Shown: positions 2,904 to 39,856 of the stretch, one piece after another
Numbering within the stretch: position 1 is the first letter of the stretch
How the letters are laid out: every line of letters begins with the position of its first letter
DNA from: an uncultured delta proteobacterium
GTDB taxonomy: Bacteria > Desulfobacterota > Binatia > UBA9968
Assembly: GCA_963771465.1 (NCBI GenBank)
Contig: CAVYTU010000013.1
Coordinates: forward strand, 384,001-448,000
Length of the DNA stretch: 64,000 nt
Direction of reading: 5' to 3'
Made by a program: the position numbers and the translations under genes
Notes under the pieces: generated by a model
What the model was told of the DNA's origin: nothing
Seen by the model: the letters and a program-made list of their open reading frames with translations, nothing else
Database searches by the model: none

Positions 2904-4028
2904 CTAGGCGACTATATGACGCGTGAGGTCGAGATTGGCGGTAAAGGCCTCCGGCGGGGGAAGGTCCACCGAAGAGTTATAAATGACCAGTGGAATATCC
3001 GACTCGTGGAGCGAACCATGGGATCGATAGCCGTATTCGAGTTCTTCCATGGGCCCTTCGAGCTCGCCGAAAACGGTATCAGCATCACCGAATACTGCTA
3101 GCTCGCCGATGCGCTCGGGCATGAGGCCGAATTTGGCCGCGGCATCACGGCGCGGCAGCACCGCTTCCACCCCCTTGAGTCCCATTAGGGTCGCCGCGAC
3201 TTTGCTCTCATCCTTCGGTGACTTGAGCCAGACCCAGGCTGCGCCGCCAAAGGTCCGGTGATGCTTGACGTAGCGATCTTTTTCCGCGGAAAGCGCAAAG
3301 CGCACTTCGCTGCCGAGCTCGCGGCAGGCTTTGAAAAGGTCCCAACAACGCGATTTGTAATTCATGCCGTGGTCGGCGGTGAGTAAGAAGGCGGCGTCCG
3401 GTGCAGCGGCTTTCGCTTCGCTCAGGAGCTGATCCAGAGTTGTCATGTGTTCTTTCGATTCTGTCTCCGCCGGCGCCCAGGTATGCATCGGGTAATCGGT
3501 GGTGTGAACATAGAGAAGACCGATGTCAGGGCGATGCTTGAGAATATCGATGGCGGCCCGCCACAGCCAATAATTGATTTCGCGACTGTAGATGTTCGCT
3601 GGTTGGCCGTAGCGCGCAACCCACTCAGCAGGCGGCGCCTCAGCGGCTACGGCGATCTCCGCGCCGCGCCCGAGTAGATGTATTGTTTTTACTTTGCACG
3701 TCAGCAGCGCCGACTTTACGCCGCGCTCGGCAGCGCGTTGAATCACCGTCGGGACACAAATAAAATCAGCGTTCTCCATGTAGTCGGCTTCGCCGGTCTG
3801 CTCGTTGAAATAAGAATTGCCGGTGATGCCATGCTCTTTGGGCCATGTGCCGCAGCAGATCGACGCATTGTTGGAGTTGGTTACCGTCGGAAAAACCGCG
3901 CTAACCCGTTTAAAAAATCCTTGTTCCGCCATGGAGCGAAACGCCGGCAACGGGCTGGCTTCCATGTAATCCATGCCGAATCCGTCGTACATGCCGATAA
4001 CGATCCGTTGTTTGCCGATGAGTGTCAT
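2904..4028 (-). CDS. phnA: Phosphonoacetate hydrolase-like alkaline-phosphatase-superfamily enzyme
   Basis: Motifs DG, PTVTNSNN (Thr nucleophile), HGITGN, TTDYPMH, TADHGM, YVKHH, RSHGS. Confidence 0.65.
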   Translation of the reverse strand: MTLIGKQRIVIGMYDGFGMDYMEASPLPAFRSMAEQGFFKRVSAVFPTVTNSNNASICCGTWPKEHGITGNSYFNEQTGEADYMENADFICVPTVIQRAAERGVKSALLTCKVKTIHLLGRGAEIAVAAEAPPAEWVARYGQPANIYSREINYWLWRAAIDILKHRPDIGLLYVHTTDYPMHTWAPAETESKEHMTTLDQLLSEAKAAAPDAAFLLTADHGMNYKSRCWDLFKACRELGSEVRFALSAEKDRYVKHHRTFGGAAWVWLKSPKDESKVAATLMGLKGVEAVLPRRDAAAKFGLMPERIGELAVFGDADTVFGELEGPMEELEYGYRSHGSLHESDIPLVIYNSSVDLPPPEAFTANLDLTRHIVA

Positions 4029-10198: not shown

Positions 10199-10696
10199 AT
10201 GTTTCGTCGTGTCGATCTTCCCGCACAGGTTCCTGGGAAACTGCTACTCCACAGCATGCCGGGGCGCTATGAAGCGCTCGATCGTGTGTGGCATCAGGTG
10301 AGGAACGAAGCGGTTTGCGCCATCGTGTGTCTAGCCGAAATGGCTGAAGTTCGGGATAAGTCTGCCGAGTACGCTCGGGCGCTTGAAGAGGGCACGGTGC
10401 CTTGTGCGGTGCTGCAATTCGAGATTCCCGACCGCGGCGCCGCCGCCGACCGGGTTGCATTTTGGGCGCTTGCCGACGACATAGCGAAACGCTTGCACGC
10501 TGGTGAAGCCGTGCTGATTCATTGCGCCGGCGGCGTGGGCCGCACTGCAATGCTTGCGATTTGCGTGCTGCTCGCTCTCGGTGAACCGGCGAACGCGGCC
10601 CGCAGTGTGATCTCGCGGGCGGGGTCGACGATTGAAACCGCTCCTCAGAGCAGCCTCATTTCGTGGTGCGAATCGAAGGTCGGTGTCAAAGCGTAA
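10199..10696 (+). CDS. Dual-specificity/tyrosine protein phosphatase
   Basis: HCAGGVGRT (CX5R) catalytic motif, IPD acid loop, IET..Q. Confidence 0.85.
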   Translation: MFRRVDLPAQVPGKLLLHSMPGRYEALDRVWHQVRNEAVCAIVCLAEMAEVRDKSAEYARALEEGTVPCAVLQFEIPDRGAAADRVAFWALADDIAKRLHAGEAVLIHCAGGVGRTAMLAICVLLALGEPANAARSVISRAGSTIETAPQSSLISWCESKVGVKA

Positions 10697-10754: not shown

Positions 10755-11840
10755 TTAAACGAGGCCGAATTCTCTCCGCTCCGTCCGCGTGACGCGGATA
10801 TCGGAGCGCGGCAGCCGGGCGATGTCGAAGTGAGCGATCAGCTCGTTTGCGTGGATGCGCGGTGGCGCGTCGATGCCCGCGGAGCGAGCTACCCAGGAAA
10901 CGATCTGGCGCGGGTCGGCGCCGGCGGCGCGTAGTTGGGCGAGGGAAATATCGTCGCTGCGCTTGGCAAGGCGGCGGCCCGACTCGTCGGTGACCAAGGA
11001 CACATGCCACCAGCGCGGATGGCTGTAGCCGAACGCCTCTTGCAGCAGCCATTGCCGGGCGCAGCTTTCTAACAGGTCGGCGCCGCGCACGATCTCGGTG
11101 ACGCCTTGGCGCGCGTCATCGACGACGACGGCGAGTTGGTAGGCGGGCGTGCCGACGCGGCGCGAGATTGGAAAATCGCCAAGGGTCGCGCGGGCGTCGT
11201 ATTCACCCACACCTTGGATACCGTCCTCGATGCGCACGATGATATCCGGGACGACAAAGCGCAGCGCCGCTGGACGGCCGCTGGCTTGCTCCGCAGCCTC
11301 TAGACTTTTATATTTGCCGCGGCAAGTGCCGGGATAGATCGAGTTCGCTTCTCCGCCATGGGGCGCGGCGACGGCGGTCAGGATTTCCTTCCGCGTGCAG
11401 GTGCACGGATAGGCGAGACCGCGAGCGAGCAGCGATTGGGCTGCGGCGTCGATGTCGGCGGCGCCGCGCGATTGCACGTACGGTTCGCCGTCCCAGTCCA
11501 GTCCGAGCCAGCGCAAATCTTCGATGGTTGCTTCGAGCATGCCCGGCTTGATGCGCTCGACGTCTAAATCTTCCAGCCGCAGCACGATCCGACCGCCGCG
11601 CGTGCGGGCGTGCCACCAGGCGAGCAGAAAAGAGCGCGCGTGGCCGAGGTGCAAGTGACCTGTGGGGCTCGGCGCGAGCCGGCCGACGATGACCGCGCTC
11701 GTTGTGTCAGTCGGCGACGCCGTTAAAGAATTCTGGTCAACTGGCAAAGTATCTCCGTTGGAAATTTGTATTGCCTCTCTTTTTAACCCGTTCGCAAGCC
11801 GAACGTCCCCTGCGCTTGCTGGCATCGATCGAATGAACAC
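10755..11840 (-). CDS. gluQ: Glutamyl-Q tRNA(Asp) synthetase (true start probably ~11750)
   Basis: GRLAPSPTGHLHLGH, CTCTRKE..YPGTC, YQLAVVVDD, RGADLL, RLAKR; no anticodon-binding domain. Confidence 0.88.
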   Translation of the reverse strand: MFIRSMPASAGDVRLANGLKREAIQISNGDTLPVDQNSLTASPTDTTSAVIVGRLAPSPTGHLHLGHARSFLLAWWHARTRGGRIVLRLEDLDVERIKPGMLEATIEDLRWLGLDWDGEPYVQSRGAADIDAAAQSLLARGLAYPCTCTRKEILTAVAAPHGGEANSIYPGTCRGKYKSLEAAEQASGRPAALRFVVPDIIVRIEDGIQGVGEYDARATLGDFPISRRVGTPAYQLAVVVDDARQGVTEIVRGADLLESCARQWLLQEAFGYSHPRWWHVSLVTDESGRRLAKRSDDISLAQLRAAGADPRQIVSWVARSAGIDAPPRIHANELIAHFDIARLPRSDIRVTRTERREFGLV

Positions 11841-12113: not shown

Positions 12114-13178
12114 CTAATAGCCGTACTTCTCGACCACCGGCGCCAACCGTTCCAAGTTGCGCTTGACCTCGTCGGTCTGAGCCATTTCGTGCCACACTTC
12201 CTGAACCAAATCCTGCTGAATCATAGCGTCCAAATCCTTGCGCGTCACCGATTTGGACAGCACGCCGGCATCGATATGTTCTTCGAGGATGCGCCAGACG
12301 CCCTCCGGACTAAGCTGGCCGTCGAGCGGGAAAAACGAACTCTCCAACATGATGATCGGCACGAGATCGCGCATGCGCTCGGACTCATCCGGATTGTTGA
12401 CGCGCAGCTTGGCTTCGACATAGCGGCGAAATGGGTAGCTTTCGGGAATCATCCGCATCTGATGGTAAGCGCGGATGGTCGCTTTCCAGAAACGCTTGAT
12501 CAATTCCGGATTGCGCTCGATGAATGATTTCCGCGCCACGGTGACGCGATCGGGCCGGCCGTGGGGTTTGGAGTCCTCGACGAAGTCGTAGAGTTTATTG
12601 AAGCCTTGCTCGACCAATTGTGGCACCCACTGATTGCGTACGATGGCGGCGTCGGTATCGCCGGCCTGGAGCGGCTTCCAGGCTTCGCGCATGGAGCCGT
12701 ATTTGTAACCGATCTTCCACTCGACGTCGCGATCGGGGTCCAAGCCGGCCAGACGCATTTGCCGTTCGAGCCACAAGGTGGCGATGCCGCCGCGATACCA
12801 ATCGCCGATGCGTTTGCCTTTGAGTTCTTTGATCGACCTGACGCCGGGCGCGGTCACCAGCGAAGCGGGAAACCAATTGCGCCAGCCGCCGATGATTCTC
12901 AGCTCGTCATTGCCCAAGGCGCGCTCGGCGAACGGCGTGCGCACGTGCACGTCGGGAATGATGTCGATATTGAACGCGATCATATCGCGCAGCACCGTGC
13001 CGACCTCGTCATAGCGCTCGCCGTCGGGCCGGCTGGATTCCATGCCTTTGGCATAGATTTTTGCCGTGACGACTTCGACGTCGATCCCTTCTTGGGCGAA
13101 GAGACCGGCCTCGTGGCAATACGCCGCAACCTGCACATGACCCGCATGCCAACAACCGTTACCCACACGAAGTTTCAT
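12114..13178 (-). CDS. ABC substrate-binding protein, SsuA/NMT1-like
   Basis: GLFAQEGIDVEV, SIKELKGKRIG, GLDPDRDV, FIERNPELIKRF; no clear signal peptide. Confidence 0.7.
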   Translation of the reverse strand: MKLRVGNGCWHAGHVQVAAYCHEAGLFAQEGIDVEVVTAKIYAKGMESSRPDGERYDEVGTVLRDMIAFNIDIIPDVHVRTPFAERALGNDELRIIGGWRNWFPASLVTAPGVRSIKELKGKRIGDWYRGGIATLWLERQMRLAGLDPDRDVEWKIGYKYGSMREAWKPLQAGDTDAAIVRNQWVPQLVEQGFNKLYDFVEDSKPHGRPDRVTVARKSFIERNPELIKRFWKATIRAYHQMRMIPESYPFRRYVEAKLRVNNPDESERMRDLVPIIMLESSFFPLDGQLSPEGVWRILEEHIDAGVLSKSVTRKDLDAMIQQDLVQEVWHEMAQTDEVKRNLERLAPVVEKYGY

Positions 13179-13324
13179 CGTTCACTCCAGAGCAAAGTTT
13201 TCATAAGCTAGCAAGCTGCTCGGCCAAACGTCAAACAGACTGGACGTTTCATTCACCACCTCGCTGCTTCAAGCATAGCGCCATTGGCTGTAACAGCTAT
13301 CATTTAATCTCGCAAAATATTCTT

Positions 13325-13351
13325 TGGCGGAGAAGGGAGGAGGTCGAACCC
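13325..13351 (-). repeat. att-like duplication of the tRNA-Sec 3' end
   Basis: 16 bp identical, 25/27 overall, including the CCA end and T-arm. Confidence 0.8.
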
Positions 13352-13374
13352 ATCGAAACATGCCCGCCGAGGCG

Positions 13375-14535
13375 TCATTCTCGCAGCAACGCGGATGCTC
13401 TATCGACAAGTGTCTGCTCGTCCCAGTGAAGGCGTTCGAATGAAGCGGCGATCCTGCCGTCGTTATCAAGGATGTAAGCTTCGATTTTGTGGCGGTTGAC
13501 CAGCGATTCGATGAAGTTGACGCCCAGCTCAAAATAGCTACAAAGAGCATCGAAACTGTCAATGGACCTTAGTATTCTATGGCCGGCATGAAGGCGTACG
13601 CCGCGGTGTTTTCCATAAGCGCGCAATCGCTCGGGTAGATCGTAGGCGGGATCATATGTAATCGCGGCCGTATGGATTAACTCGCTGAGTCCTTGTTCTC
13701 TCAGCAGCTTTTGCACGGATGCAAGCTTGGTGATCGTGAGCGAGCACTTCAGGGGATTGTCGCAGCGGGTGTAGAAGAAAACGACGATTGATGGATGCCC
13801 GTAAAAAAATTCCTTGAAGGTAAGCGAGGCACCCTCATGGTCCTCAAAGACAATCTTTTCGACGGATTCGGAACTGCAACGGGTGTCACGTGCCCATGAA
13901 ACTACACTGTTGACGGGGGCCGGTGAGGCACAGCAAGAGTGATTATTCGGCTCGCTCGTTTGATCACCACGACGAATCGCCTCAACAGCGCGATCTACAT
14001 CATCCAGGAATCTCTTCGGAAGCCCGCCGTCCTTCGTGCCCAAAGACTCCACCTGGGGCAGAATCTCCCGCGCACTCGGTCCCATCCATTCTAACGTTGC
14101 AAGTAGTTCTCTAACCGGGCTTGTCGCCCCGTGAGATTCAGAGTATGCGCCGTAGTTCTCGAAGGATACGGGTTCATCATGATACCTGATGTTGGCGAGC
14201 GCGCGGATCAGGTAGGGCGCGAAAAATGCGGATGGATTCGGGTAGGACCGCAAGGCGCGTGCCGCGGCCGCGACAAGATAGGCGTCAACACCCGTATCAA
14301 GTTCTTCGAGCACGAAGATCAACGCGGGTTCCGATAGGCCGACGTGCGACAGAGCATGTAGAACCCAGCCGCGCATCCTGACAATCGCTGCAGTTCCACG
14401 CTGATCGTAGCAGGGATGATCTTCGCGCAATAGATCAGTTAACTGTTCGCGCCTGGTTGGATCGCCAGCAAGCGATTCAACCAACGATGCAAACTCCCGT
14501 TCCGACTGTGCAGTAGTCGCTCTCGAATCCTGCAT
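13375..14535 (-). CDS. SCO-family copper protein with N-terminal HEAT-like domain
   Basis: FFYTRCDNPLKC, ITYDPAYDLPERLRAY, VNRH; RBS gaggagg before ATG 14535. Confidence 0.8.
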   Translation of the reverse strand: MQDSRATTAQSEREFASLVESLAGDPTRREQLTDLLREDHPCYDQRGTAAIVRMRGWVLHALSHVGLSEPALIFVLEELDTGVDAYLVAAAARALRSYPNPSAFFAPYLIRALANIRYHDEPVSFENYGAYSESHGATSPVRELLATLEWMGPSAREILPQVESLGTKDGGLPKRFLDDVDRAVEAIRRGDQTSEPNNHSCCASPAPVNSVVSWARDTRCSSESVEKIVFEDHEGASLTFKEFFYGHPSIVVFFYTRCDNPLKCSLTITKLASVQKLLREQGLSELIHTAAITYDPAYDLPERLRAYGKHRGVRLHAGHRILRSIDSFDALCSYFELGVNFIESLVNRHKIEAYILDNDGRIAASFERLHWDEQTLVDRASALLRE

Positions 14536-14546
14536 TGTTCGCCTCC

Positions 14547-15431
14547 TCACTGACCATACTTGCTGAGGAACTGCCGTGCGGATTGTTTGACCACGCTTGA
14601 TCCCTTGCCGCCGAGGCGTTTTACGCGCCTAAGAAGTACGCTGTCATTGACTATGGCCACTTGGTCGCCGAACTGCTTAAGTGCAGTCAGGCAAGTGGCC
14701 TGAATCTCATCATGCTCCGAGGTGTCTAGTAAAATCTCGCGGGCGTGAGTGCGTAATTTGTCCGGTTTGATCGCCTGTAGGGCAGCGGCGGAGATCTGCC
14801 GATTCTCAGACGTTTCTTTTTTGTCGCGCAAGACTTTCTCGAACGTGGGTGCAGCGTTGGCATCGGCGGCGAGGAGACGTAACGCTTCTCGCTTTGCGGT
14901 CGCATTGGGTGGATTGCCAACGATCGCACGCGCGATTGGATAAGCTTCGGCGTGTACATCGTAACTGAGAAGCTGGAGTGCCTTCTCAGGTGGAAGTAAC
15001 GCTTTGTCAGGTTGCTGCAGCCCTTCGAGCAGCTTCTTTTGTGCAAAACCATCTTTCTCGCGTGCGAGGATACCGAGCACGCGCTGACGGAGCTCTAGAT
15101 CTTTGTCCGCTGCCACCGCGCGCAAGGTCGCAATGTAGTCCGTACGGCACGACTCGAACGCGACGACGCTAAAACTTGCGGCTTGTAGTGCCTGTAACGC
15201 GGCTAGCCGTACCTCGATAGGTTCTTTCTCTTCGCGCAGGATTTTCAGGACCGTTTGCAGACTCTTGTCATCCTCACACATGGCCAGAGGCACATCCGCC
15301 ATGGCTTTGACCCGCGCTTTGATCGAGTTTTTCGCATTGGTCCCGAACGCAAGCGCACGCTGTGCAATCCGGCGGGGATTTTGGGCCGATTTCCGGCTCT
15401 TTGCAGATTTAGGTTTAGATTTCTTGGGCAT
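14547..15431 (-). CDS. HEAT-repeat protein
   Basis: Repeated VRLAALQAL, LRQRVLGIL, AKREALRLL, RQISAAAL helices; basic N-terminus. Confidence 0.7.
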   Translation of the reverse strand: MPKKSKPKSAKSRKSAQNPRRIAQRALAFGTNAKNSIKARVKAMADVPLAMCEDDKSLQTVLKILREEKEPIEVRLAALQALQAASFSVVAFESCRTDYIATLRAVAADKDLELRQRVLGILAREKDGFAQKKLLEGLQQPDKALLPPEKALQLLSYDVHAEAYPIARAIVGNPPNATAKREALRLLAADANAAPTFEKVLRDKKETSENRQISAAALQAIKPDKLRTHAREILLDTSEHDEIQATCLTALKQFGDQVAIVNDSVLLRRVKRLGGKGSSVVKQSARQFLSKYGQ

Positions 15432-15458
15432 GGTGGCTATCTCCTCGTTTCGAGCATT

Positions 15459-16682
15459 TCATGAAAAAGGCGCATCGTCGTAGTCGAATCCCAACCGTGT
15501 AAGAGGATTTAGGGTACCTTGGTAATCCAGACAATCACGCACGCGTGGCTGGGGTCCCGGGGCAGTGACGCTTGGCGATGATGCTAACGCACCACCCGGC
15601 GCTGTCGGAGGACGCGTGCCTCCAGTAATCCCATTCCACGGCCACATTGTATCAGGGAGATTATGGCCAATGCGGCTTACGGGAGTACTGTCGTATGAGG
15701 CTGCCTGGCCCGGATCAAAACGGCGGAACTGACGCTGCCACTTAGCCCATAGCCGATCGACATTGCAGTGTAGCAAGAAGAACAGTGGATCTCGTGCAGC
15801 GGTTGGGATGCTAGAAATCGATCCACCGAAGCTCGTGTGCGCTGAACCATGCGGATTGCCTTCCATTGTCCGGAATGATCGGTATTGGTTGCCAAGTCCA
15901 AGTGTGTTCGCCTCGTTACGCAACCCAGGCGGCGCCGAATTTGTGCTGAAAAAAGGTCGGCGATTGATTCCCTGGACGCCATCGGTCACCCAGAATCGCA
16001 ATGGGTTGTTTGCGCTGAACTGGACTGTACCAAGCGGGTCGGACGCACCAAGAAAATCGCGGGTGAAAATATTTGGCGCTGGCTGATCGAATCGCCAGTA
16101 AGGGAGTGAAACGCTTGGATCGATCGTTTGGAGCTCCCGTTCGAGATCCAGCAAATAAGCCCGATGCCAAGGCAAAAAAGCTGGAGCGCCATGCGCCTGG
16201 GGAGAGGCAACTTGGGTGTGCATATCGCGAAAGTCGGCGAAACGCCCTGCGCCTTGGTTGTTAAGTTGTGCAAACGCTGAATTCAATCGGTCGCGCTCTG
16301 CCGGCGTGAGGGTGTTGGCATTCTTTCGGATGCGTACCATGACCGGTACTGAGCCAACGAGTGTGGTTCCGGAGCGGGCTTCTATCGTTACATCACCGTT
16401 ATTGACACTCGGACGTCCGAAGCTGCCCGCGATAAAAAACGACACGGAAGTACCAGTTATCGGAACCGGCAAAGTTAAATCATTGGAAAATGTATCTGTG
16501 GCGTTTCTTCGGAATACGACCGCGCCCCCGGCTGCTTGCGATCGTCCTGTAATCCGCACACTGATTGTCGGCGATGTAGTACCAGACGGGTCGCTCACGC
16601 GGATGCGGCACGGGGATGGAACCCAGGAAAGAAATCTCGTTTTTGGATCTGCACTGTTATTAATCTGAAGTTCCACTCTCAA
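15459..16682 (-). CDS. Tyrosinase-family (type-3 copper) protein with N-terminal beta domain
   Basis: CuA MH..AH..FLPWHR and CuB NPH..AH..DPLFFLLH; LPYW; FDYD; TTG start with RBS aaaggagg. Confidence 0.9.
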   Translation of the reverse strand: MRVELQINNSADPKTRFLSWVPSPCRIRVSDPSGTTSPTISVRITGRSQAAGGAVVFRRNATDTFSNDLTLPVPITGTSVSFFIAGSFGRPSVNNGDVTIEARSGTTLVGSVPVMVRIRKNANTLTPAERDRLNSAFAQLNNQGAGRFADFRDMHTQVASPQAHGAPAFLPWHRAYLLDLERELQTIDPSVSLPYWRFDQPAPNIFTRDFLGASDPLGTVQFSANNPLRFWVTDGVQGINRRPFFSTNSAPPGLRNEANTLGLGNQYRSFRTMEGNPHGSAHTSFGGSISSIPTAARDPLFFLLHCNVDRLWAKWQRQFRRFDPGQAASYDSTPVSRIGHNLPDTMWPWNGITGGTRPPTAPGGALASSPSVTAPGPQPRVRDCLDYQGTLNPLTRLGFDYDDAPFS

Positions 16683-16731
16683 GATGAAGTCCTCCTTTCG
16701 CCCTTATGGATATGCACTCGTCGTTTCCATG

Positions 16732-16746
16732 GCACGAGCGATGCCT
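16732..16746 (-). promoter_or_regulatory. Possible sigma54 promoter of the tyrosinase operon
   Basis: AGGCAT-CGCTC-GTGC (GG-N10-GC); overlaps a plus-strand TGGCACGAGCGATGC. Confidence 0.35.
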
Positions 16747-16987
16747 CCCAAAAGTTAGTGTCAATTTCAAGATCTGTCAATTAACAAAAACCAAGTGAGA
16801 ATGAGACAACCATTTCCTGCGGTCTGACACCGATGCAATGTATTCATTGGATGTCCAACGAGTGGGAGCCGAATGAAGTTCCACTACCATTTTAATCGGC
16901 GATTGTAGGTTAAACGCGATGACCTATCAAAACCCGTCACTGAGGTTATAGGTATCGGCTCGTTGAGTCGAAAATCCGCGAGACACC

Positions 16988-17082
16988 TGGCGGAGAAGGG
17001 AGGGAGTCGAACCCTCCGGGGACCTTACGACCCCCAGACTGGTTTTGAAGACCAGCGGCACCACCGGGCACCTTCCTTCTCC
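16988..17082 (-). tRNA. selC: tRNA-Sec (anticodon TCA)
   Basis: 95 nt; anticodon arm ctggt-cTTCAAa-accag, long variable arm, GGTTCGACTCC T-arm, extended acceptor stem, CCA end. Confidence 0.93.
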
Positions 17083-17319
17083 TCATGGTGAAGCCGCTAA
17101 CTTAGAATGGCTGAGGGATTTCAGCAAGTGGACTGCTGAAATCGAACGTGAAAGTTCGCTGAGGAAGATCTCAAGCGCACGAAATTCGTCCGGGCGAAAC
17201 CTTACGAGCTGGCTTCGCTCATACACTTGCCTGGATCATCGCTCTCTGTGCGTTTGCTCTCCTTGACCTTGGGCAGCGCCGCGGACACCGTCGTAGGCAA
17301 GCGGCAGCGACGGTGGATT

Positions 17320-17943
17320 TCATCGACCGGCCAACCGCACGGTGCTCGCCTGCGGCCCTTTCTCGCCCATCTCTTCGGCGAAGTGAACTTCATGGCCGAC
17401 TTCCAAATGATCGAATCCCGGCGCCAGCACGCTATTTTTGTGAAAGTAGACCTCGCGCCCGTCGAGAGTCTCGAGAAAACCATAATCCTCGATGGGGAAA
17501 AGTTTGACGATACGTGCGGTGGGTGCGGGCTCGTGGAGTTTGACCTTGCCGCGTCGGCGACGGGCGTGGTCCTGCAGCTTTCTTCCCGCCGCGTTAAACG
17601 CGTCGCGGATGGCGACGTAAAGATCTTCATGTGCCGCATGTTTGCTGGGCTCATGAACCTCGGCGAAATCTTTCTCCGGCTCTTCGCCAACGTTTAACTT
17701 GGTAGCCGCCAATCGTTTTGGCGCCCGGTTGACGACTAATTCAGCGCCGGGAACAGTCAAGTCGATCCGCGTCAGATACGCTTTCCCTTTGTGGTGGTGG
17801 CGATGCGGCGCTTCCACGATGACCCGGCAGCTCATGATCTCAGGATAAAGCTCATCGAGCTTGGCCGCCTTCTCGCGCACGTTGCTTTCGATCGCCGGCG
17901 ACGGCGCCATGTTGCGAAAGGTGATCTGCAAGGGAATTTTCAT
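17320..17943 (-). CDS. HPF/RaiA ribosome-associated protein fused to a cold-shock domain
   Basis: LQITFRNM..S.AIE, DLYVAIRDAF.AA.R.L; CSD YGFLETLDGREVYFH..GPQAS. Confidence 0.9.
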   Translation of the reverse strand: MKIPLQITFRNMAPSPAIESNVREKAAKLDELYPEIMSCRVIVEAPHRHHHKGKAYLTRIDLTVPGAELVVNRAPKRLAATKLNVGEEPEKDFAEVHEPSKHAAHEDLYVAIRDAFNAAGRKLQDHARRRRGKVKLHEPAPTARIVKLFPIEDYGFLETLDGREVYFHKNSVLAPGFDHLEVGHEVHFAEEMGEKGPQASTVRLAGR

Positions 17944-18771: not shown

Positions 18772-19293
18772 ATGAACTTGGATTTCAAGCGGATACTTTG
18801 CCCGGTGGATATGTCGGAATTTTCGCTCGATGCGTTGCGCTTGGCGGTCAAGTTGGCCGAATGTAGTGATGCCACGCTGGATATATTGCACGTGATTCAC
18901 AACCCCTTTGACGAGTTGTATATGACCGCAATTGCGGAGACTAATCCGGCGCTGCTCGACGCCTACGCTTCAGAACCGCAAAAGCGGGCAAAAATTTTGC
19001 GGGCGACCGAAGAGCACTCGGAGGTATTACTCAAACAGTTCTGCCACGATTGGGTAAAGCATCATTCAAAGTTGCGCTACCACGTGCGCAGCGGCGATCC
19101 TTTCGAACTGATTCTCGACGGCGCCCAGAATTTCCGGACCGATCTGATCGTGTTGGCGACTCATGGCCGCACCGGCATCAAGCGCCTGGTGATCGGCAAC
19201 GTCGCCGAGAAGGTGGTGCGTCACGCGCCGTGCCCGGTGCTGACGGTCAAAGCAAAAGCGCCAAGCGAAGACGCGGCCTCTAAGGAGGAATGA
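18772..19293 (+). CDS. Universal stress protein
   Basis: RILCPVDMSEFS; DLIVLATHGRTG..IGNVAEKVVRHAPCPVL. Confidence 0.92.
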   Translation: MNLDFKRILCPVDMSEFSLDALRLAVKLAECSDATLDILHVIHNPFDELYMTAIAETNPALLDAYASEPQKRAKILRATEEHSEVLLKQFCHDWVKHHSKLRYHVRSGDPFELILDGAQNFRTDLIVLATHGRTGIKRLVIGNVAEKVVRHAPCPVLTVKAKAPSEDAASKEE

Positions 19294-20180
19294 TGGACGA
19301 GTCCAAAGCGTCCGAGAGCGAGGCGTTGATCAGAATCTTGCATCCGTCGGATTTTACCCCGGCGAGTTTCATCGCCTTCGCTCACGCGCTCAAGATCGCC
19401 CTACAATCCAACGCCGAATTGGAAATCGTCCACGTCGAACCGCACACAATCGGCAGCGACAAAGATGTTCACTGGAGTGAGTTCCCTGGCGTGCGCGAGA
19501 CTTTGGCACGTTGGCGTGTATTGCCCACCGATGCGGCGATCGATGAAGTCGCCCAGCTCGGTTTGCGCGTCAAAAAGATTCTCAATGCAGAGCGCGATGC
19601 GCTGGCGGCGATGACCCAATACTGTGAATCACATCCACCGGACTTGCTGGTGCTGGCGACCCACCAACGGGAAGGGTTTGAGCGCTGGCTGCATAAACCG
19701 GTGGCCGAGCCACTGGCGCGCCGCTCGCGTGCGCTGACACTATTCGTGCCGAGCCACGGGCAAGGATTTATCTCTCCGGCCGACGGCACGGTGACACTCA
19801 AGCGCATTCTCATTCCCGTCGATCATATCCCCAATGCGCAAGCGGCGATCGAAGAGACGTTTTTTCTCGCCGCGGGATTGGGCTGCAGTGATGTCGAGTT
19901 CAAATTGCTGCATGTCGGCACGGAGCGCGGCATGCCAACACTGTTCCTGCCGCATCACCCTGGTTTTAAGTGGGATGAGCGCATGCTCAATGGCGACGCG
20001 GTGGAAACGATTCTCCGAGAGACGACAATTTGGCAGCCGGATTTGATCGCGTTGACGACTCAGGGTCACAGGGATTTTCTCGACGCCCTGCGCGGCAGCA
20101 CGACGGAGCGAGTTTTGCGCGGCGCCCATTGCCCGGTATTGGCCGTGCCGGCGGATGAGTCGGCGCGGGCGCAAGCTTGA
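19290..20180 (+). CDS. Tandem-domain universal stress protein
   Basis: ILHPSDF and ILIPVD starts; GSTTERVLRGAHCPVL. Confidence 0.88.
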   Translation: MMDESKASESEALIRILHPSDFTPASFIAFAHALKIALQSNAELEIVHVEPHTIGSDKDVHWSEFPGVRETLARWRVLPTDAAIDEVAQLGLRVKKILNAERDALAAMTQYCESHPPDLLVLATHQREGFERWLHKPVAEPLARRSRALTLFVPSHGQGFISPADGTVTLKRILIPVDHIPNAQAAIEETFFLAAGLGCSDVEFKLLHVGTERGMPTLFLPHHPGFKWDERMLNGDAVETILRETTIWQPDLIALTTQGHRDFLDALRGSTTERVLRGAHCPVLAVPADESARAQA

Positions 20181-20311: not shown

Positions 20312-23300
20312 TCATCGCGGTATCGCCGCCTGGTGCATGAGTAGCAGGCCTTCTGACCCGAGAACTACACGTATAGGGTGCGTTGCGCCGTCATCGACGA
20401 GCGGGATCTGCATGCTGCCGCTAGCCAACGGCACGCCATCGAGTTCAACAGATGACACCCCGCGCATTACCCCCTGTGGGTTCTCGACGACGATTTCATA
20501 ACGCGCCGAGTGATAGCGAAAAGTGATCTCGAAGCTGCGCCATGCATGCGGGATACAAGGATCGAGGTAAAGCCTCGTGCCGCGCAGACGGAAACCTAGT
20601 ATCCACTCGATACCAGCCCGGTACATCCAACCCGCTGATCCGGTGTACCACGTCCAGCCGCCGCGCCCGACGTGCGGCGGTTCGGCATAAATATCGCCGG
20701 CGACGACATAGGGCTCGACTTTGTAGCGATAAACGCCGGCACGGCTGCTCGCATGATTGATCGGGTTCAAGAGCGAGAAAAGTTCGCCGGCCTTGTCGCC
20801 GTCGCCGAGAGCGGCGAAAGCAATGACGGACCAGAGCGCGGCATGAGTATATTGGCCGCCGTTTTCGCGCACCCCGGGCAGGTACCCTTTAATGTAGCCT
20901 GGATCGGGGCTCCCACGGTCGAACGGCGGGCTGAACAGGAGCACGAGTCCCTCGGCACGGCGCACGAGATATTTCTCGACGGCTGCCATGGCTTGCGCTG
21001 CACGAGCCGGCTCAGCGGCACCGGAAATCACGCCCCAGGATTGCGCGATCGAATCGATGCGGCATTCGGCGTTCGCGGCGGAGCCGAGCGGCGTCCCATC
21101 GTCGAAGTAGGCGCGCCGATACCATTCGCCATCCCACGCTTCTCGTTCCACCGCTGCTTTAAGTGCACTGACATGCAGTCGCCAAGTCTCGGCGCGCTGG
21201 TGCTCGCCGCGAGCATCGGCCAGCCGGGCAAATTCCCAAAGCACGGTGTGAAGAAACCAAGCAAGCCAGACACTCTCGCCTTTTCCTGCGGATCCAACCC
21301 GGTTCATCCCATCGTTCCAGTCGCCCGTGCCGATCAGCGGAAGACCATGACTGCCAACGGCCAAACTGCGATCGAGAGCGCGAGCGCAGTGCTCGAACAA
21401 GGTGCCGGTTTGCGCGGAAACCCGGGGCTCGAAATACAAATCTTCCTGCTCCGCCGCGAGCGTGGAACCCTCGAGAAAGGGAACGACCTCATCAAGTAGT
21501 CCAAAATCGTCGGTGACTTCCAAGTATTGAACGACCGCATACGGCAGCCAGACGCGATCATCGGAGACCCGGGTGCGCACGCCGCGGCCCGATGGAGGAT
21601 GCCACCAATGTTGCACATCTCCCTCGACGAATTGACGCGCGGCGGCCCGCAGTAACTGCGCTCGCGCAATGTCTCGTTGCGCCAGCGCGAGCGCCATCAC
21701 GTCTTGAAGCTGATCGCGAAAACCGTACGCGCCGCCCGCTTGATAAAACGCCGAGCGGGACCAGACACGACAGGCCAGCGTCTGATAGAGCAGCCAACGA
21801 TTGAGCATAAAGTTCATGGCCCGATCGGGGGTTTTCACCTGCACAGTACCGAGAATGTCATCCCAGTACTGGGTAACCGCGCGCAGGAGCTCATCAAGGT
21901 CGGTATCGCGGTAACGCGCGATCAATGTTCGAGCTTCTTCCGCGCTCGCCGCCGAGCCGAGGAAAAAGACGATCTCCGCACGGCCCCCGGCGTTCAGTTC
22001 CACCGTCGTCTGCATTGCAGCGCATGGGTCGAGAGCCGCACCGACTTTGCCCGAGAAGCGATCCCCTCGTTCTAGAGATGCCGGATGATCGGGGGCACCG
22101 TGGCGACCCAGAAACTCCGTCCGATCACAAGTCCACGACGTTTGCTGGCCGCGCATATCGGCAAACGCAACACGGCCAGCGAACTCGCTATTCCAAGCGT
22201 TACGCGCGAAGATTGCCCGGGTTTGCTCGTCGACCTCGGTGACAACGAAGGGAGCGGATGCGCTCCGTGAAGCGCCCAGCACCCACTCGACGTACGCGGT
22301 CACCGACACGCGCCGTGATCGGTCAGAGCGATTCTCAATCGTGAGACGGGAGATTTTAATTGGGTCCGCGAGCGGCACGAACTGTAAATGGTCAAGCGCG
22401 AGTCCATGCGACTCGTGCTCGAAGCGGCTGTAGCCCTGGCCATGTCGGGCGGTATAGGGCCAGGCCTCCTCGCGGATCGGCAGCACCGTGGGATTCCACA
22501 ACTCGCCAGTCTCTTCGTCACGCACGTATATCGTCTCGCCGGGCGGGTCGCTGACCGGGTCATTGGACCACGGTGTGAGCTGGTTCTCGCGGCTGTTGAG
22601 CGACCAGGTATAACCCGCGCCTGATTCAGACACCTGAAAGCCGAAGGAAGGATTCGCGACCACGTTGATCCAGGGCGCCGGCGTCCATTGTCCCTCGCCG
22701 AGAATCGTCACGTATTCACGGCCGTCGGCGGTGAAACCGCCCAGGCCATTGAAGAATTCCAGTTCCGGCCGCGCCGGCAAGACATCCACTGCCTTACTCG
22801 CCGGCGGACGCCGTTGGCGCGCAAGCGCAGGCGTTCGGGATCGTTGCTGACGTTCCACTTGCTCGGCCAAGGTGCCGCGGCGGCTCAAGAGCACGGCCCG
22901 GGCGGCAGACTGGAGCAGTGCGCGATCCTCAGCCGAAATGAGATCGCCGCGGAGAATAAAAACATTGCCGAATGAGCCCGGCTCCTCCTGCAGGCGCGAC
23001 TGGCTGGCCCGAACCTGGCTCTCCAAAGCGTCCTGAAGATTTTGCGCGTAGGAGGAGGGCTGTTCGTTCAAGATCACAAGATCGACCGCCAACTGTTTGA
23101 TTCGCCAGTATTCGTGGGCGCGGAGCAACTGACGTACGATACTCTGGTCTTCAGCTTCATCGATGCGCACGAGCACGACGGGCAGGTCGCCGGAAATTCC
23201 GTGGCGCCAAAGTCCCGACGGCCCGCGCTTATTACCCATGAGCACCGCAGAGGACGGTCGCAGCGTCGCGTCCGAGTACAAGATGAGGCCGGCTAATTCT

Positions 23301-26300
23301 TGGAAAAGGTAGGCCTCATCGGCGTCGATCCCGAGATGACGCAACTGGACCTGGGCCTGCGTCCACGCCAAGGTCGCGGCGCGCTCAAAGGTTGCTGGAT
23401 TATTGTATTCGTCCGCCAGGGCGAGAGCCTCATCGCGCGATGACGCGATGAGTGTCGAGAACGTAACCCGAGCGGTGGCTCCCGGCGCAAGCCGTACACA
23501 GCGCCTGAGACTGGTGATCGGGTCGAGCACCGCGCCGACCGTGTTGGAGAGCGGGTGGCCGTCGATGACCGACATGGGCGTGCGGATGCCGCGACCGCGG
23601 CCGAGAAACCGGCTGCGATCGGTCTCATATTCCAACTCGCCGACGGTTACTCCTTCGGCGACAACCACGTGCACCGCCCAGAACTGGGGCTCGCCGTGGG
23701 TTCGTGGCCGGCGCGTCGCGAGCAGTGCGCCGAGCTCGGCAACGTATTCCGTCTGCACGAACAGATTGGAAAAAGCCGGATGAGCCGCATCCGCTGCCGG
23801 GGTTGCTAGAACGATCTCGGCGTACGATGTCAGCTCAACTTCTCGGCTTGGCGCGCCGAGATTCGTGATCGACAGCCGGCGTACTTCCGCGTCGTGCTCC
23901 GGCGAAACCACGATTTCAAGGTTGGTCACGATCGCGCCATCGCGCCTGCGGATCTCTGCGCGATCTTCGGAAAAAGCGACTTCATAGGTGTCCGGTTCGA
24001 CGCCGCTTGGCTGGTATCCAGCCGACCAGACCTGGCTGGTGGATCTGTCGCGCAGAAAAAAATACGTCCCCCAGCTGTCGCGCGTCCGGTCCTCGCGCCA
24101 GCGTGTAACCGCAAGGTCGCGCCAGTGGCTGTAACCGGAGCCCGCGGTGGTGACCATCACCGAATATCGTCCGTTGGAGAGGAGATGAACGCAGGGAGTC
24201 GCGTCGTGCGGCGAGTCGAAGTGACGAAGCACCGGTGGAACGAGATCGCGGACGTTGGCGACGGCACGCACCTCGTCAACCCTGGGCCGGGTGACCAAGA
24301 CGTCGCGTGGAGTGCGTTCCTGCAGCAACAACTCGGTGGCTTGCATGCGCGGCTCGGCGTGAAAGCGCGTGCGCATCACCCCGTCGTGGAGGACGTTTGC
24401 GAGCGCCACGAGCGACATCCCTTGATGATGCGCCATGTAGGCGCGCACGACGGCCACGCGTTGGTCTTCCGGGACTCGTTCGGCCGTGTAATCGAGCGCT
24501 TCATAAAAGCCATATGGGCCGCTCGCGCCGGCCTGGGCGAGATCTATGAAATTCTGAACGGCCGCCTCGGCGTCAATCATCGCGGCCAGCGCCGTCGCAT
24601 AAGGCGCGACTACCACGTCTTCGCTAAGCCCCCGTTTGAGCCCCAGCCCGGGCACGCCAAAATTTGAGTACTGGTAGGTCAGCTCAATATCGCGCGCGTT
24701 ATAGGCCGATTCTGAAACGCCCCACGGAACGCCGCGTTCGGTTCCATATTTTCGCTGACGGCGAACGATGAGAGAACAAGTCTGACCTAACAGACTGCCC
24801 GACGGCGAGCGCATGACGAGCACGGGCATGAGGTACTCGAACATCGACCCGGACCAGGAGACCAGCGCAGACCCCGTATCGACTGGCGTCAAAGCGCGAC
24901 CGAGGTGAAACCAATGGCTTGCCGGAACGTCCCCCTTCGCAATGGCAATAAAGCTTGTGAGCCGCGCCTCGGACGCCAGCAGATCGTAACAACTTGGGTC
25001 GAGGCTGTTATCGGCAACGCGGTAGCCGATCGAGAATAGCTTGCGGGTGGGGTCGAAGAGAAAGCCGAAATCCATCGTGTCGAACATCGTTTTCGTGTGC
25101 GCTACGAGCGTTGAAAGGCGGCGGCCCAGCGCTTCACAGGCTGTGGCAGAACGTGTGAGACCCTCTATGAGCGCATCGATTTCGCCAAGAGCATCGCTCT
25201 TCGCAGCGCTGTCCTTTGCCGCCCGTTCGCGGAGCGTCGTGAGTTCGCGTCTGGCGGTTTCGCAGCGGTCCGGCGCATCGGCCAGGGTCGGGACCGAGAG
25301 AAAAACGCGCACCATCGTTGTCGAAACCAAATCTTCTTCGGGCTTGCGATTTAGGGGAGCCTTGCCAAAGACAAGGCGCGCCCAGGGCATTACCGCGTCG
25401 AGATCGCGCCCATGACTTTCGATGGCCGCTCGCACAGCCTCGGCCCAGGCGAGCAACTCCCCCTCCGCGCTGTCGCCCCGTTCCGCAGTCAGCGTGCGCG
25501 CAATATCTGACATCGTCTGAGCGCGCGCCTCGAGCTCAGTAAGGCGCACGAGCCAATCAGCTGGAGTCATAGCGGCCGGACTCAGAGCGGCGCTCAAGGC
25601 ATCGATTGCTTCATCCAACTGTTTCCGCGTGACCGTTTGGGTGCGCCGGTCGTCGACGACCGCACGTACCGCTTGACGGAGAAGCAGGATGGCATCGGCG
25701 ATTCCAGCGAGTGTATGCGGGCCGAGCAGCGGGCGGTCGATGATCTCTTGGCACGCCTGTCCAAATGCGATGAGGTGGCCGGCGAGGTTTCCACTATCGA
25801 CCGAGGATATGTATTTAGGATCAAGCGGACGGAGGTCACGCGTATCATACCAGTTATAGAAGTGACCGCGAAAACGATCGAGGCTGTTCATGGTGCCGAG
25901 CGTCGATTCGAGCCGCTCAAGTGCGCTCACCGTGCCGATCCAGCCGAAATCGCGCGCCGCGATGATGGAGAGCAGATATAGCCCTATGTTGGTCGGTGAG
26001 GTGCGATGGGCCACGACCGGTGTCGGCGTTTCCTGAAAATTGTCGGGAGGAAGCGCGTGGTCTTCCGGGCCGACAAAGGTTTCGAAGAACCGCCAAGTGC
26101 GCCGCGCGGTTAAGCGCAGCATACGAACGTCGTCCGCCGAGAGAGGCTGAGCCGCAGCCGCGCGCGGTGGCAGGCTGATCCAATAAGCCACCATCGGCGA
26201 TAGAGCCCAGAGAATAGCGAACAGCACCGCAATCCACCGGACTTCCGGCGGCTGGGACGCAACAAGGATCGCTACCGCGGCAGCGATGACTACCGTGCCG

Positions 26301-37949: not shown

Positions 37950-38855
37950 ATGTATAGCAAAGTGCTGATACCGTTGGACGGTTCTAAGACGGCAGAAAAG
38001 GTCCTGCCTTACGCTCGGTACCTGGCGCACAAATTCAAAATCCCCGTCGAACTATTGGCGGTGATCGATATCGCCGAAATGGCTACCCATGTCTCAGCGG
38101 AAAAGATTCGTCACCTCGACACTTTGGTCGAAGACGGCGTGCGCGCCAGCACGACCTATTTACGCGGCATCGCGACGACGTTTCGCTACGCCAATGTGAC
38201 ATGCACGGTGGAGAAGGACCGCGCCGAAAACGCGATCATCGGTAAAGGTGAAACCGACAGCGCGATGTTGATCGCCATGGCGACCCACGGCCGCTCCGGC
38301 TTGAATCGCTTCTTGCTCGGTAGCGTGGCGGAGAAAGTTTTGCGCGGCACCGTCAATCCGTTGCTCTTGGTGCGCGCGACCGAGGCAGCGAAGGCCGAGG
38401 GCGAAGTGGTGTTTAGATCGGTCGTGGTGCCGCTGGATGGTTCCGAACTCGCCGAAAGCGTCATTCCCATGATGGCAGATGTCGCCAAAGCGTTGGATCT
38501 CGAAGTCGTGCTGTTTCGCGCCTATCAAACCCCGTATAACGCCTACGCGGGCGCCGATCGCTACTTCGCCGTCAATTACGATGAACTGATTGCCGGCGCG
38601 CGCGATGAGGCCAACGAGTATCTCGAAAAGAAAGTCGCAGACGTCAAGAAGCTCGGCGTCGCGAAAGTCTCGGCAATGATCAAAGAAGGGTTCGCCGGCG
38701 ATGAGATCATCGCCGCGGGGCGCAAGATACCGAACAGCGTGATCGCCATGTGCTCCCACGGCTATTCCGGTGTTAAGCGCTGGATGCTCGGCAGCGTCAC
38801 CGAAACCGTGGTACGCCACGCGGGAGAACCAGTGCTGATCAGTCGCCCCGGTTGA
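37950..38855 (+). CDS. Tandem-domain universal stress protein
   Basis: PLDGS twice; MATHGRSG..LGSVAEKV. Confidence 0.92.
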   Translation: MYSKVLIPLDGSKTAEKVLPYARYLAHKFKIPVELLAVIDIAEMATHVSAEKIRHLDTLVEDGVRASTTYLRGIATTFRYANVTCTVEKDRAENAIIGKGETDSAMLIAMATHGRSGLNRFLLGSVAEKVLRGTVNPLLLVRATEAAKAEGEVVFRSVVVPLDGSELAESVIPMMADVAKALDLEVVLFRAYQTPYNAYAGADRYFAVNYDELIAGARDEANEYLEKKVADVKKLGVAKVSAMIKEGFAGDEIIAAGRKIPNSVIAMCSHGYSGVKRWMLGSVTETVVRHAGEPVLISRPG

Positions 38856-38884
38856 TATACAACCAGGAATGAAGGAGCAGAGCT

Positions 38885-39856
38885 ATGTATTCGAAGATCC
38901 TTGTGCCGCTGGACGGTTCCAAGACGGCAGAAAACGTGCTGCCCTATGCTCGTTGTTTTGCCCGGAGTCTACAGGTGCCGGTCGAGTTGATGGCCGTAGT
39001 GGATTCAGTTGAGATGGCGCGTAACGTCTCGGCGGCCGAGAGTCTGTGTTCAGACACGCTGATCGACGACGAGATTCGAAGGTGTGGCAATTACTTGCAA
39101 CAGGTGACCAATAACTTTCCCGTCAATGGGGCGCGATGCACGGTGGAAAAGGGAAAGGCAGCTGACGTCATCATCGAATCGGCTGCAGCGCAGAGAAAAA
39201 CGCTAATCGCCATGGCAACTCATGGACGCTCCGGTCTCAATCGCTGGCTGTTGGGCAGCGTGGCGGAAAAAGTTCTACGAGGCACCTCAAATCCATTGCT
39301 CCTGGTGAGAGCGAAGCAGCAAACCCCGCCGTGGGAAATGGCGGCATTGAAGCGAGTCATTGTTCCGCTCGATGGGTCGGAGTTGTCGGAACGAGTTTTG
39401 CCCTACGTTGAAGCATTGGCAAACCATCTTGATTTGGAAGTGACCCTGTTCGGTGTCTACGGCATTCCCTTGGTCGCCGGTGGAACCGGCGAAGGTTTTT
39501 ATAATTCCGATCAGATGGACGCACTCATTGCCGGGGTCCGTGCCGAAACCGTGACGTATCTCGCAGTTAAGACCGAAGAGTTGAAACAGAAAGGCTTCAA
39601 CAAAGTCTCGTTCAAAGCTAAAGAGGGTCTCGTAGCGGACGGTATTATTGCAATGGCGCGAGAGACTCCCGACACTCTAATCGCGATGTGTTCCCACGGC
39701 CGTACCGGCGTGAAGCGTTGGGTGCTGGGGAGTGTAACCGAAACGGTGGTGCGTCATTCGGACAACGCCGTTTTGGTTATACCGCCGGGAGCGGACTTTC
39801 CTCACCGTAAGACAAATCACCTAGCACAGAAAGGAATCTCGTATGGCGCTGCTTAA
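38885..39856 (+). CDS. Tandem-domain universal stress protein (paralog of 37950)
   Basis: PLDGS twice; MCSHGRTG..LGSVTETVV. Confidence 0.92.
   Translation: MYSKILVPLDGSKTAENVLPYARCFARSLQVPVELMAVVDSVEMARNVSAAESLCSDTLIDDEIRRCGNYLQQVTNNFPVNGARCTVEKGKAADVIIESAAAQRKTLIAMATHGRSGLNRWLLGSVAEKVLRGTSNPLLLVRAKQQTPPWEMAALKRVIVPLDGSELSERVLPYVEALANHLDLEVTLFGVYGIPLVAGGTGEGFYNSDQMDALIAGVRAETVTYLAVKTEELKQKGFNKVSFKAKEGLVADGIIAMARETPDTLIAMCSHGRTGVKRWVLGSVTETVVRHSDNAVLVIPPGADFPHRKTNHLAQKGISYGAA

Follow-up and report, generated by a model that had tools for sequence, protein, structure and literature searches.

This analysis concerns three adjacent genes in a 64,000-nt stretch of contig CAVYTU010000013.1, the whole of which is referred to here as the window. 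The genes encode a tyrosinase (TYR), a HEAT-repeat protein, and a fusion of a HEAT-like domain with an SCO-like domain (HEAT-SCO), and analysis of the open reading frames (ORFs) of the window shows all three on the minus strand, in the same orientation and close-packed. The stop codon of the tyrosinase gene is separated from the HEAT gene by a 27-nt gap, while the HEAT and HEAT-SCO genes share 4 nt when the latter is read from its GTG start, or lie 11 nt apart when translation begins at the ATG at position 14535. This ATG is the probable true start, since it has a GGAGG sequence 6 nt upstream and the homologues begin with MQD. With either start, the tightly spaced operon described in the initial annotation of this DNA, made from its letters and ORFs, is confirmed. 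The trio is a conserved, self-contained unit, and its features are collected in Table 1.

Table 1. Features of the trio and of the islet that encloses it, in window coordinates
Feature	Position	Strand	Basis or remark
Tyrosinase gene, 407 aa	15459-16682	(-)	TTG start, AAGGAGG 7 nt upstream
Tyrosinase N-terminal Ig-like beta-sandwich domain, residues 1-116	16335-16682	(-)	Structure model
Tyrosinase catalytic core and conserved C-terminal tail	15459-16334	(-)	PF00264, invariant His, Foldseek
HEAT-repeat protein gene, 294 aa	14547-15431	(-)	GAGGAG ahead of ATG
HEAT-SCO fusion gene, 391 aa	13375-14550	(-)	GTG start; ATG at 14535 likelier
HEAT-SCO N-terminal helical (HEAT-like) domain, residues 1-200	13951-14550	(-)	Highly conserved
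Cys-Cys pair C206-C207 in linker (HSCC)	13930-13935	(-)	Translation
SCO-like thioredoxin-fold domain	13378-13908	(-)	PF02630
CX5C motif CDNPLKC, C263-C269	13744-13764	(-)	Translation
Distal His, H354	13489-13491	(-)	Translation
Leader, non-coding, 305 nt, within islet	16683-16987	(-)	Upstream of tyrosinase
tRNA-Sec (anticodon TCA), 3' end toward trio	16988-17082	(-)	ARAGORN; Rfam RF01852, 76.7 bits
Left att-like repeat, last 27 nt of tRNA-Sec	16988-17014	(-)	Repeat search
Right att-like repeat, 27-nt copy of tRNA-Sec 3' end, 25/27 identical	13325-13351	(-)	23 nt past SCO stop

The evidence for the unit comes from 185,579 species genomes that were scanned with the SCO fusion and yielded 95 confirmed relatives; the locus counts given here and below refer to the best 80 of these 95. 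The order TYR-HEAT-SCO, on one strand, is found in 68 of the 80 loci, spread over at least eight phylum-level groups. When the window proteins are used as tblastn queries, the SCO fusion is recovered in 80/80 loci, the HEAT protein in 73/80, and the tyrosinase in 68/80, with order and strand always alike. Seven of the 12 loci without a tyrosinase end before its expected place (L021, L044, L047, L051, L053, L064, and L067), and the true local absences number five (L008, L014, L032, L048, and L060), three of them in genomes that hold a family tyrosinase elsewhere. The carriers are in the majority Acidobacteriota, and include Alpha- and Gammaproteobacteria, Nitrospira, Verrucomicrobiota, Actinomycetota, Chloroflexota, a planctomycete, Gemmatimonadota, and Binatia. 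Identity to the window proteins ranges from 46 to 81% for the tyrosinase (the top value comes from L010, whose genome is flagged unpublished), from 24 to 70% for the HEAT protein, and from 40 to 71% for the SCO fusion. Clustering of all flanking ORFs gave no fourth conserved neighbor gene; an apparent conserved cluster after the SCO gene was rejected as an overlapping frame of the membrane domain described later.

Co-occurrence of the three genes elsewhere, the check that the initial annotation had proposed, is borne out not only by this conserved order but also at the level of one genus and by gene fusions. Of 151 genomes drawn from the genus Bradyrhizobium, four have the tyrosinase and six the SCO fusion, and in all four tyrosinase-positive genomes the SCO fusion is adjacent, on one contig. 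Among the relatives, one locus (L079) has the HEAT and HEAT-SCO proteins fused in a single 662-aa frame. A 757-aa protein, P0337, consists of a beta-domain tyrosinase followed by a homologue of the HEAT protein (residues 484-712, 32% identity over 229 residues, E 5e-34), the HEAT region of which includes YD(I/V)HA with its invariant His, and 6 of 20 long relatives, picked by length, have a HEAT_2 match after the tyrosinase. P0340 and P0349, two giant proteins of 1526 and 1665 aa, join a three-domain multicopper oxidase, an AhpC/TSA-Redoxin domain, and a beta-domain tyrosinase; P0340 additionally contains HEAT_2, while the start of P0349 looks signal-like. Through these fusions the three window proteins are all linked as members of a single functional set, and the same fusions raise a redox alternative that will be weighed below. 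Metagenome protein collections contain at least 1572 relatives of the SCO fusion at E ≤0.001 and at least 2906 of the tyrosinase at E ≤1e-10, and those with a name are called only "SCO family protein", "protein SCO1/2", or "tyrosinase".

The first protein of the trio is recognized by Pfam PF00264 (121.8 bits against a cut-off of 22.6, E 6.6e-35, residues 146-318), and its copper ligands, H155, H164, and H173 for CuA and H278, H282, and H305 for CuB, are invariant in 41 aligned family members. The core has the four-helix-bundle fold of solved tyrosinases and is best matched in Foldseek by the tyrosinase of Bacillus (Priestia) megaterium (4p6r, E 2.6e-11, template modeling score on the target 0.60), which is also the closest solved single-domain relative (phmmer E 2.6e-24, 29-31% identity); the other solved neighbors of the core, by phmmer and Foldseek, are the Streptomyces tyrosinase and single functional units of mollusc hemocyanins. 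The full model has a mean predicted local distance difference test (pLDDT) value of 76.9. The protein stays below the MelC2 equivalog NF047834, with 100.4 bits against a cut-off of 450, and it is the only tyrosinase in the host genome.

Ahead of the core lies an N-terminal domain that, folded alone, gives an immunoglobulin (Ig)-like beta sandwich with a mean pLDDT of 93.3. Its fold matches are generic (best VIA Z 8.3, best Foldseek E 1e-3), comprising Ig-like, PapD-like, and p53-like sandwiches; the caddie and the hemocyanin beta domain are not among the listed matches, which excludes nothing. Homology of this domain to hemocyanin was considered and rejected, the phmmer alignment of its last strands to the end of the preceding hemocyanin unit being short and unconfirmed by the fold search. 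The profile of the domain retrieves 503 cluster representatives among 1.84 billion proteins, and in 19 of the 20 representatives that were scanned, chosen by length, it directly precedes a PF00264 core, and at times it is duplicated or triplicated in tandem. The tyrosinase shows neither a hydrophobic nor a twin-arginine N-terminus, and a signal peptide is lacking because strand 1 starts at once, from residue 2. The initial annotation was therefore right in assigning to this protein all six copper-binding His, an extra beta-rich N-domain of ∼115 aa, and no signal peptide. The architectures treated in the part of a review devoted to bacterial tyrosinases are those with a caddie, with a C-terminal extension, or with a bare core, and none of them has an N-terminal beta domain (PMC9454253); the N-terminal Ig-like type would be a fourth.

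The HEAT-SCO protein opens with some 200 very conserved residues that include no invariant Cys, His, or Met, and this combination suggests a protein-binding role for the domain. It is followed by the linker with the Cys-Cys pair, which is ≥90% conserved in 44 sequences, and then by a domain assigned to SCO1-SenC (PF02630, 41.9 bits against a cut-off of 22.8, E 1.2e-10, residues 236-321). The CX5C motif and the HSCC linker, both pointed out in the initial annotation, are verified by the translation. All 44 sequences retain C263, C269, and H354, and in the alignment to ScoI of Bradyrhizobium japonicum (4wbr) the two Cys fall on the CxxxC motif with a two-residue insertion, while H354 falls on the distal His, which in SCO proteins lies ∼90 residues past the Cys pair. 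The N-terminal anchor, periplasmic domain, and link to cytochrome oxidase genes that are typical of SCO proteins are not found here, where the N-terminus is HEAT-like and the neighbors are the tyrosinase and HEAT genes. NCBIfam holds no family for the fusion. Eight PF02630 matches, including the window copy, occur in the host genome, so that ordinary SCO genes lie elsewhere in it.

The middle protein passes the Pfam HEAT_2 cut-off narrowly (28.2 bits against 27.7), and in the family alignment H160, R75, R115, D190, and R211 are invariant, the His being part of a YD(V/I)HA motif. Its basic tail had been noticed before and is present, ∼45 aa long and rich in Lys, Arg, and Ala; it is located at the N-terminus, a position that we correct here. 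Matches in the protein atlas are limited to "HEAT repeats" clusters, and the RefSeq name of this gene is "hypothetical protein".

In 53 of the 80 related loci the SCO protein continues for ∼130-170 residues into a C-terminal membrane domain with four hydrophobic segments and the motif FPKCPxCW, invariant in the 51 extensions that were aligned. The mean content of Lys plus Arg in these 51 extensions alternates from 3.2 in the N-flank to 0.2 in loop 1, 3.0 in loop 2, 0.1 in loop 3, and 3.3 in the C-tail, a positive-inside pattern that places both termini of the membrane domain, and therefore the SCO and HEAT parts, in the cytoplasm; a cytoplasmic location of the SCO part is thus supported for the long form. 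MerC (PF03203) is the family most commonly matched by the extensions, at E ≤0.1 in 28 of the 51 with a best value of 5.5e-4, and the scores in the two detailed tables, 18.0 and 16.2 bits, are under the 27.6-bit cut-off. The window copy and 26 other loci (27/80) end before this domain, and a search of the host genome found no homologue of it elsewhere (best E 1.37). Consequently, the earlier statement that the SCO protein lacks a membrane anchor is true of the window copy and does not extend to the majority of the family, while the cytoplasmic system that the initial annotation envisaged agrees with the charge pattern of the relatives and with the lack of signal peptides.

The genomic setting of the trio is that of a small islet. 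Between the two att-like repeats lie 3.66 kb that consist of exactly the trio and the 305-nt leader, and a second match to the 3' end of the selenocysteine tRNA (tRNA-Sec) arose in 0/100 shuffled sequences. The islet contains no integrase, no integrase family is found among the window ORFs that were scanned, and its G+C content is unremarkable with respect to the surroundings. The leader has a sigma-70-like site, TTGATA-17-TACAAT, at 16930-16902 on the minus strand, in a promoter scan that gave 1 hit where shuffles lead one to expect 2.5, and hence no excess over chance; the terminator scan of the locus did not exceed chance either, and the Rfam scan of 13000-17400 returned tRNA-Sec only.

Comparison with related genomes agrees with an insertion at this site. 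The SCO fusion is found in 0/60 relatives, of which 30 share the genus, 6 the family, and 24 the order; their genomes are 60-100% complete, and one of them, G005, is flagged unpublished. A DNA search of 30 relatives (18 of the same genus and 12 of the same order) matched tRNA-Sec at 94-100% identity, together with the HPF-CSD, tRNA-editing, and Usp genes beyond it, and gave no match within window positions 13235-16987; two relatives have different sets of genes past the tRNA-Sec 3' end, neither of which is that of the window. A distant member of the Thermoanaerobaculaceae (L078) has a tRNA-Sec, at 3833-3922, placed 24 nt upstream of its family tyrosinase and oriented as in the window, which connects the trio with this tRNA a second time, though no flanking repeat was found there; in none of the seven loci outside the window that have a tRNA within ∼1.3 kb of the trio do att-like repeats flank it. 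Plasmid copies of the trio are present on plasmid 2 of Paraburkholderia caribensis, on a conjugative plasmid of Bradyrhizobium barranii, and on a megaplasmid of Ralstonia syzygii. In B. barranii (L105, pBb323S2a, record 322794-335903) the trio lies between ISRj1, ISRj2, and ISBdi2 transposase genes, and its tyrosinase is probably disrupted, because its match is broken in two and the annotated coding sequence measures only 579 nt. To judge from the att-like repeats at tRNA-Sec, the lack of a copy among the 60 relatives, and the plasmids, the trio is horizontally mobile, in line with the mobile location that the initial annotation gave for it.

Two neighbors of the islet deserve mention. Just outside it, at 12114-13178 on the minus strand, is an NMT1/THI5-like solute-binding gene of a multicopy family, with nine further copies at 72-75% nucleotide identity in the host genome, eight of them clustered at 579-605 kb of contig C15; the relatives also have many copies of this kind. 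On the other side, at 17320-17943 on the minus strand, a 207-aa protein combines an S30AE/HPF ribosome-hibernation domain with a C-terminal cold-shock domain, and this gene stands by tRNA-Sec in several relatives as well.

Sequences from this stretch recur in public data: 20 runs from 14 studies, most of them soil or rhizosphere metagenomes, hold at least part of it, and 15 of them contain at least half of its words. The right repeat is bridged without differences by DNA contigs of two runs, one of which also bridges the left end, and one of the two possibly represents the source sample. Two soil RNA libraries of different studies also contain contigs that match much of the operon at ≥99% identity, one spanning the HEAT/tyrosinase junction and another running from the tyrosinase start into the tRNA, with carry-over of DNA being possible; the parts of the operon that they leave uncovered, such as 13262-13569, prove nothing.

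The reading that we favor, with a probability of roughly 55%, is that the trio is a self-contained and horizontally transferred module in which a type-3 copper oxidase of the cytoplasm is loaded with its metal by HEAT scaffolds together with an SCO-like Cu(I) carrier, likewise cytoplasmic. According to this scheme, the SCO-like domain would bind Cu(I) through C263, C269, and H354, having possibly received it from the Cys-Cys pair at 206-207. In most relatives the metal would enter by the fused four-helix membrane domain with its intramembrane CPxC, while the window copy would draw it from the cytosolic pool. The HEAT domain of HEAT-SCO and the separate HEAT protein would hold the apo-tyrosinase, probably via the family-specific Ig-like N-domain, two coppers would then be inserted into the His6 site, and the active enzyme may oxidize phenols or catechols, turning tyrosine into melanin or acting on soil phenolics. 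No further dedicated gene would be needed, since nothing else is conserved beside the trio. The copper-loading and scaffold complex for a type-3 copper enzyme that the initial annotation suggested is partly supported: the conserved unit stands, that the SCO-like domain loads copper into the tyrosinase is still something that we infer, and the score of the predicted complex is weak.

A more ambitious version of this scheme, which we hold only tentatively and regard as less likely than its absence, sees the long form as a private copper line, where the MerC-like CPxC domain imports Cu(I) and passes it to the Cys-Cys pair, then to the CX5C/His site, and finally to the HEAT-docked tyrosinase, the whole cassette hopping between phyla via tRNA sites and plasmids. 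If true, it would mean that bacteria possess a new family of copper importers, that the SCO fold can be put to use in the cytoplasm, and that a genuine cuproenzyme operates in the cytosol. Such a tyrosinase with its own supply would be unusual, because, for copper proteins of the bacterial cytosol, binding of the metal is generally no more than transient, as stated in the portion of PMC7558416 that deals with them.

Several observations count against the favored reading, and they need to be weighed together with the alternatives. The PF02630 match spans only positions 7-87 of the 134 in the profile, and the SCO-defining CX3C is replaced by CX5C, a replacement that is itself invariant in 44 sequences. 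Prediction of the tyrosinase and HEAT-SCO pair returned a weak score and no interface: the median of the interaction prediction score from aligned errors (ipSAE) was 0.33 (runs of 0.21, 0.33, and 0.42) against 0.00 for the best control, with partner pLDDT values of at least 81 and at least 83% of contacts shared between runs, in a calibration where the mark is reached by 116/157 solved complexes and 2/215 mismatched pairs, and where only 18 of the 157 solved complexes, along with both passing mismatches, reach it with a score of 0.60 or less. The SCO fusion also exists without a family tyrosinase in two genomes, G061 and G065, the SCO copy of the latter being truncated. Copper import is not essential to the module, given the window copy and the 26 other loci without the membrane domain and the lack of a homologue elsewhere in this genome. 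Even the activity of the enzyme can be questioned: the residue after the first CuB His is Gly279, which hardly varies within the family, and this position is occupied by Asn in the aligned hemocyanin units. An Asn at this place is tied to monophenolase activity, and with Gly279 a true tyrosinase activity is uncertain. A further objection comes from the giant relatives, since the thioredoxin-fold domain placed immediately ahead of their beta-domain tyrosinase is an AhpC/TSA-Redoxin domain with CxxC (for P0349, E 3.3e-26), which suits redox chemistry at least as well as copper. The main rival is a redox role, with the SCO-like domain being a thiol-disulfide oxidoreductase or peroxiredoxin-like partner, tethered by the HEAT parts, which may reduce the met (Cu(II)-Cu(II)) form to the deoxy enzyme, keep Cys reduced, or quench quinones or peroxide. 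The thioredoxin fold, a Cys pair of non-SCO spacing, and the 27/80 loci devoid of the membrane domain would all fit such a partner; against it stand the distal His, which is invariant and aligns with the His of ScoI, the Pfam assignment of the window domain to SCO1-SenC rather than to AhpC/TSA or Redoxin, and the fused CPxC membrane domain, weakly MerC-like, which points to metal handling. We consider this alternative unlikely, though it deserves to be taken seriously.

The HEAT proteins could instead be clients or platforms, the oxidase hydroxylating or cross-linking tyrosines on a protein or peptide that they hold, or the trio could serve copper buffering or another stress function. The tyrosinase-HEAT fusions of several relatives, the invariant His and basic tail of the HEAT protein, and the lack of a conserved biosynthetic neighbor would be in keeping with this. 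No conserved tyrosine is prominent in the HEAT alignment, however, and some members have Asn in place of the one in the YDVH motif; moreover, no conserved gene for a peptide precursor or transporter is found nearby, and a comparison with PADLOC-DB at E ≤0.01 gives 0 families for any of the trio's proteins, a result that also leaves the defense role raised in the initial annotation without support. We rate this group of explanations as rather improbable, below the redox partner. It is very hard to credit, finally, that the three genes are mere neighbors, or the decaying remnant of a larger island with no joint function here. The islet does lack an integrase and the window copy does lack the membrane domain typical of the family, but all the invariant residues of the three families are intact in the window, the counts of synteny, fusion, and co-occurrence favor a unit, and the soil RNA-library contigs, with the reservation about DNA carry-over made above, cover most of the operon.

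The window contains other genes that can be noted in passing. A 2955-aa ORF at 20312-29179 on the minus strand, with GH94 supersandwich and catalytic domains and a glucoamylase-like domain, resembles a cyclic beta-1,2-glucan synthase. Five Usp genes (18772-20180, 37950-39856, and 41836-42291), several with tandem Usp domains, lie near a PAS histidine kinase and a sigma-54 activator. At 10199-10696 on the plus strand, a small dual-specificity phosphatase-like protein has a polymorphic-toxin-system phosphatase family as its best Pfam match (Tc-R-P, E 3.5e-7), and its gene adjoins a GluQ-tRNA synthetase-like gene at 10755-11840.

Tyrosinases depend on assistance to obtain their copper, and the significance of the trio is best appreciated against the copper helpers already known for bacterial tyrosinases, of which the literature searched describes, in the parts that bear on the subject, two types. 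The Streptomyces caddie is a dedicated helper needed for copper insertion, and a C-terminal lid is another known device, as outlined in the relevant part of PMC9454253; in Marinomonas mediterranea, PpoB2 passes copper specifically to the tyrosinase PpoB1, according to the corresponding section of PMC2855505. On the reading preferred here, the trio would add a third set of helpers, widespread, strongly conserved, and with thousands of metagenomic members; between phyla, the identities of the three proteins are put at 41-81%. The Cys-pair-dependent copper loading of the Aspergillus pro-tyrosinase is a further precedent. The parts of the trio, namely a seemingly cytoplasmic SCO-like domain, HEAT scaffolds, and, mostly, a CPxC membrane domain, have never been linked to a tyrosinase in the literature searched, and the small membrane domain of most copies could be a copper importer; a full-text search, with subscription journals outside its coverage, found no paper describing a TYR-HEAT-SCO module. 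Since the cassette is self-sufficient and has carriers in culture that are non-pathogenic, such as Paraburkholderia caribensis and Bradyrhizobium, copper delivery to a cytosolic enzyme is directly testable.

Among known systems, the melC operon of Streptomyces (MelC1/MelC2), as far as the sources describe it, is likewise a small operon for a type-3 copper oxidase and its dedicated helper, and the catalytic core of MelC2 is homologous to that of the window enzyme (1wx2, E 1e-22; Foldseek ∼1e-10 to 1e-9). The trio differs from it in having no caddie homologue, its helpers being HEAT solenoids and an SCO-like domain, in having the helper genes downstream rather than upstream of the tyrosinase, and in having a tyrosinase without a Tat signal, whose location is probably cytoplasmic. 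The B. megaterium tyrosinase, in turn, has no N-terminal Ig-like domain, and no partner proteins are described for it in the passages of PMC9454253 that concern it. The SCO1, SenC, and ScoI proteins share with the window domain the thioredoxin fold, a Cys-Cys-His triad in equivalent positions, and PF02630, and differ from it by a CX3C instead of a CX5C, an N-terminal anchor in place of an N-terminal HEAT domain, a periplasmic location as opposed to the presumably cytoplasmic one, and cox rather than tyrosinase as the gene partner.

As for the islet, selC is a classical site of island integration, and like the islands found there the islet abuts the 3' end of tRNA-Sec, is bordered on the far side by a repeat of part of the tRNA, and is not found in relatives; unlike them, it measures only 3.66 kb, has no integrase or other mobility gene, and has the G+C content of its surroundings. 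The nearest functional analogue of the CPxC long form is the ppoB operon of Marinomonas, where, in the account given in the pertinent section of PMC2855505, a tyrosinase is followed by a membrane copper-transfer protein. PpoB2 (COG5486) is set apart by its description there, in that the membrane part of the trio is weakly MerC-like and fused to SCO-like and HEAT domains; the trio also has a second HEAT protein, unlike the ppoB operon. The trio is, in sum, a variation on the theme of a tyrosinase with its chaperone, built from parts that were previously unlinked.

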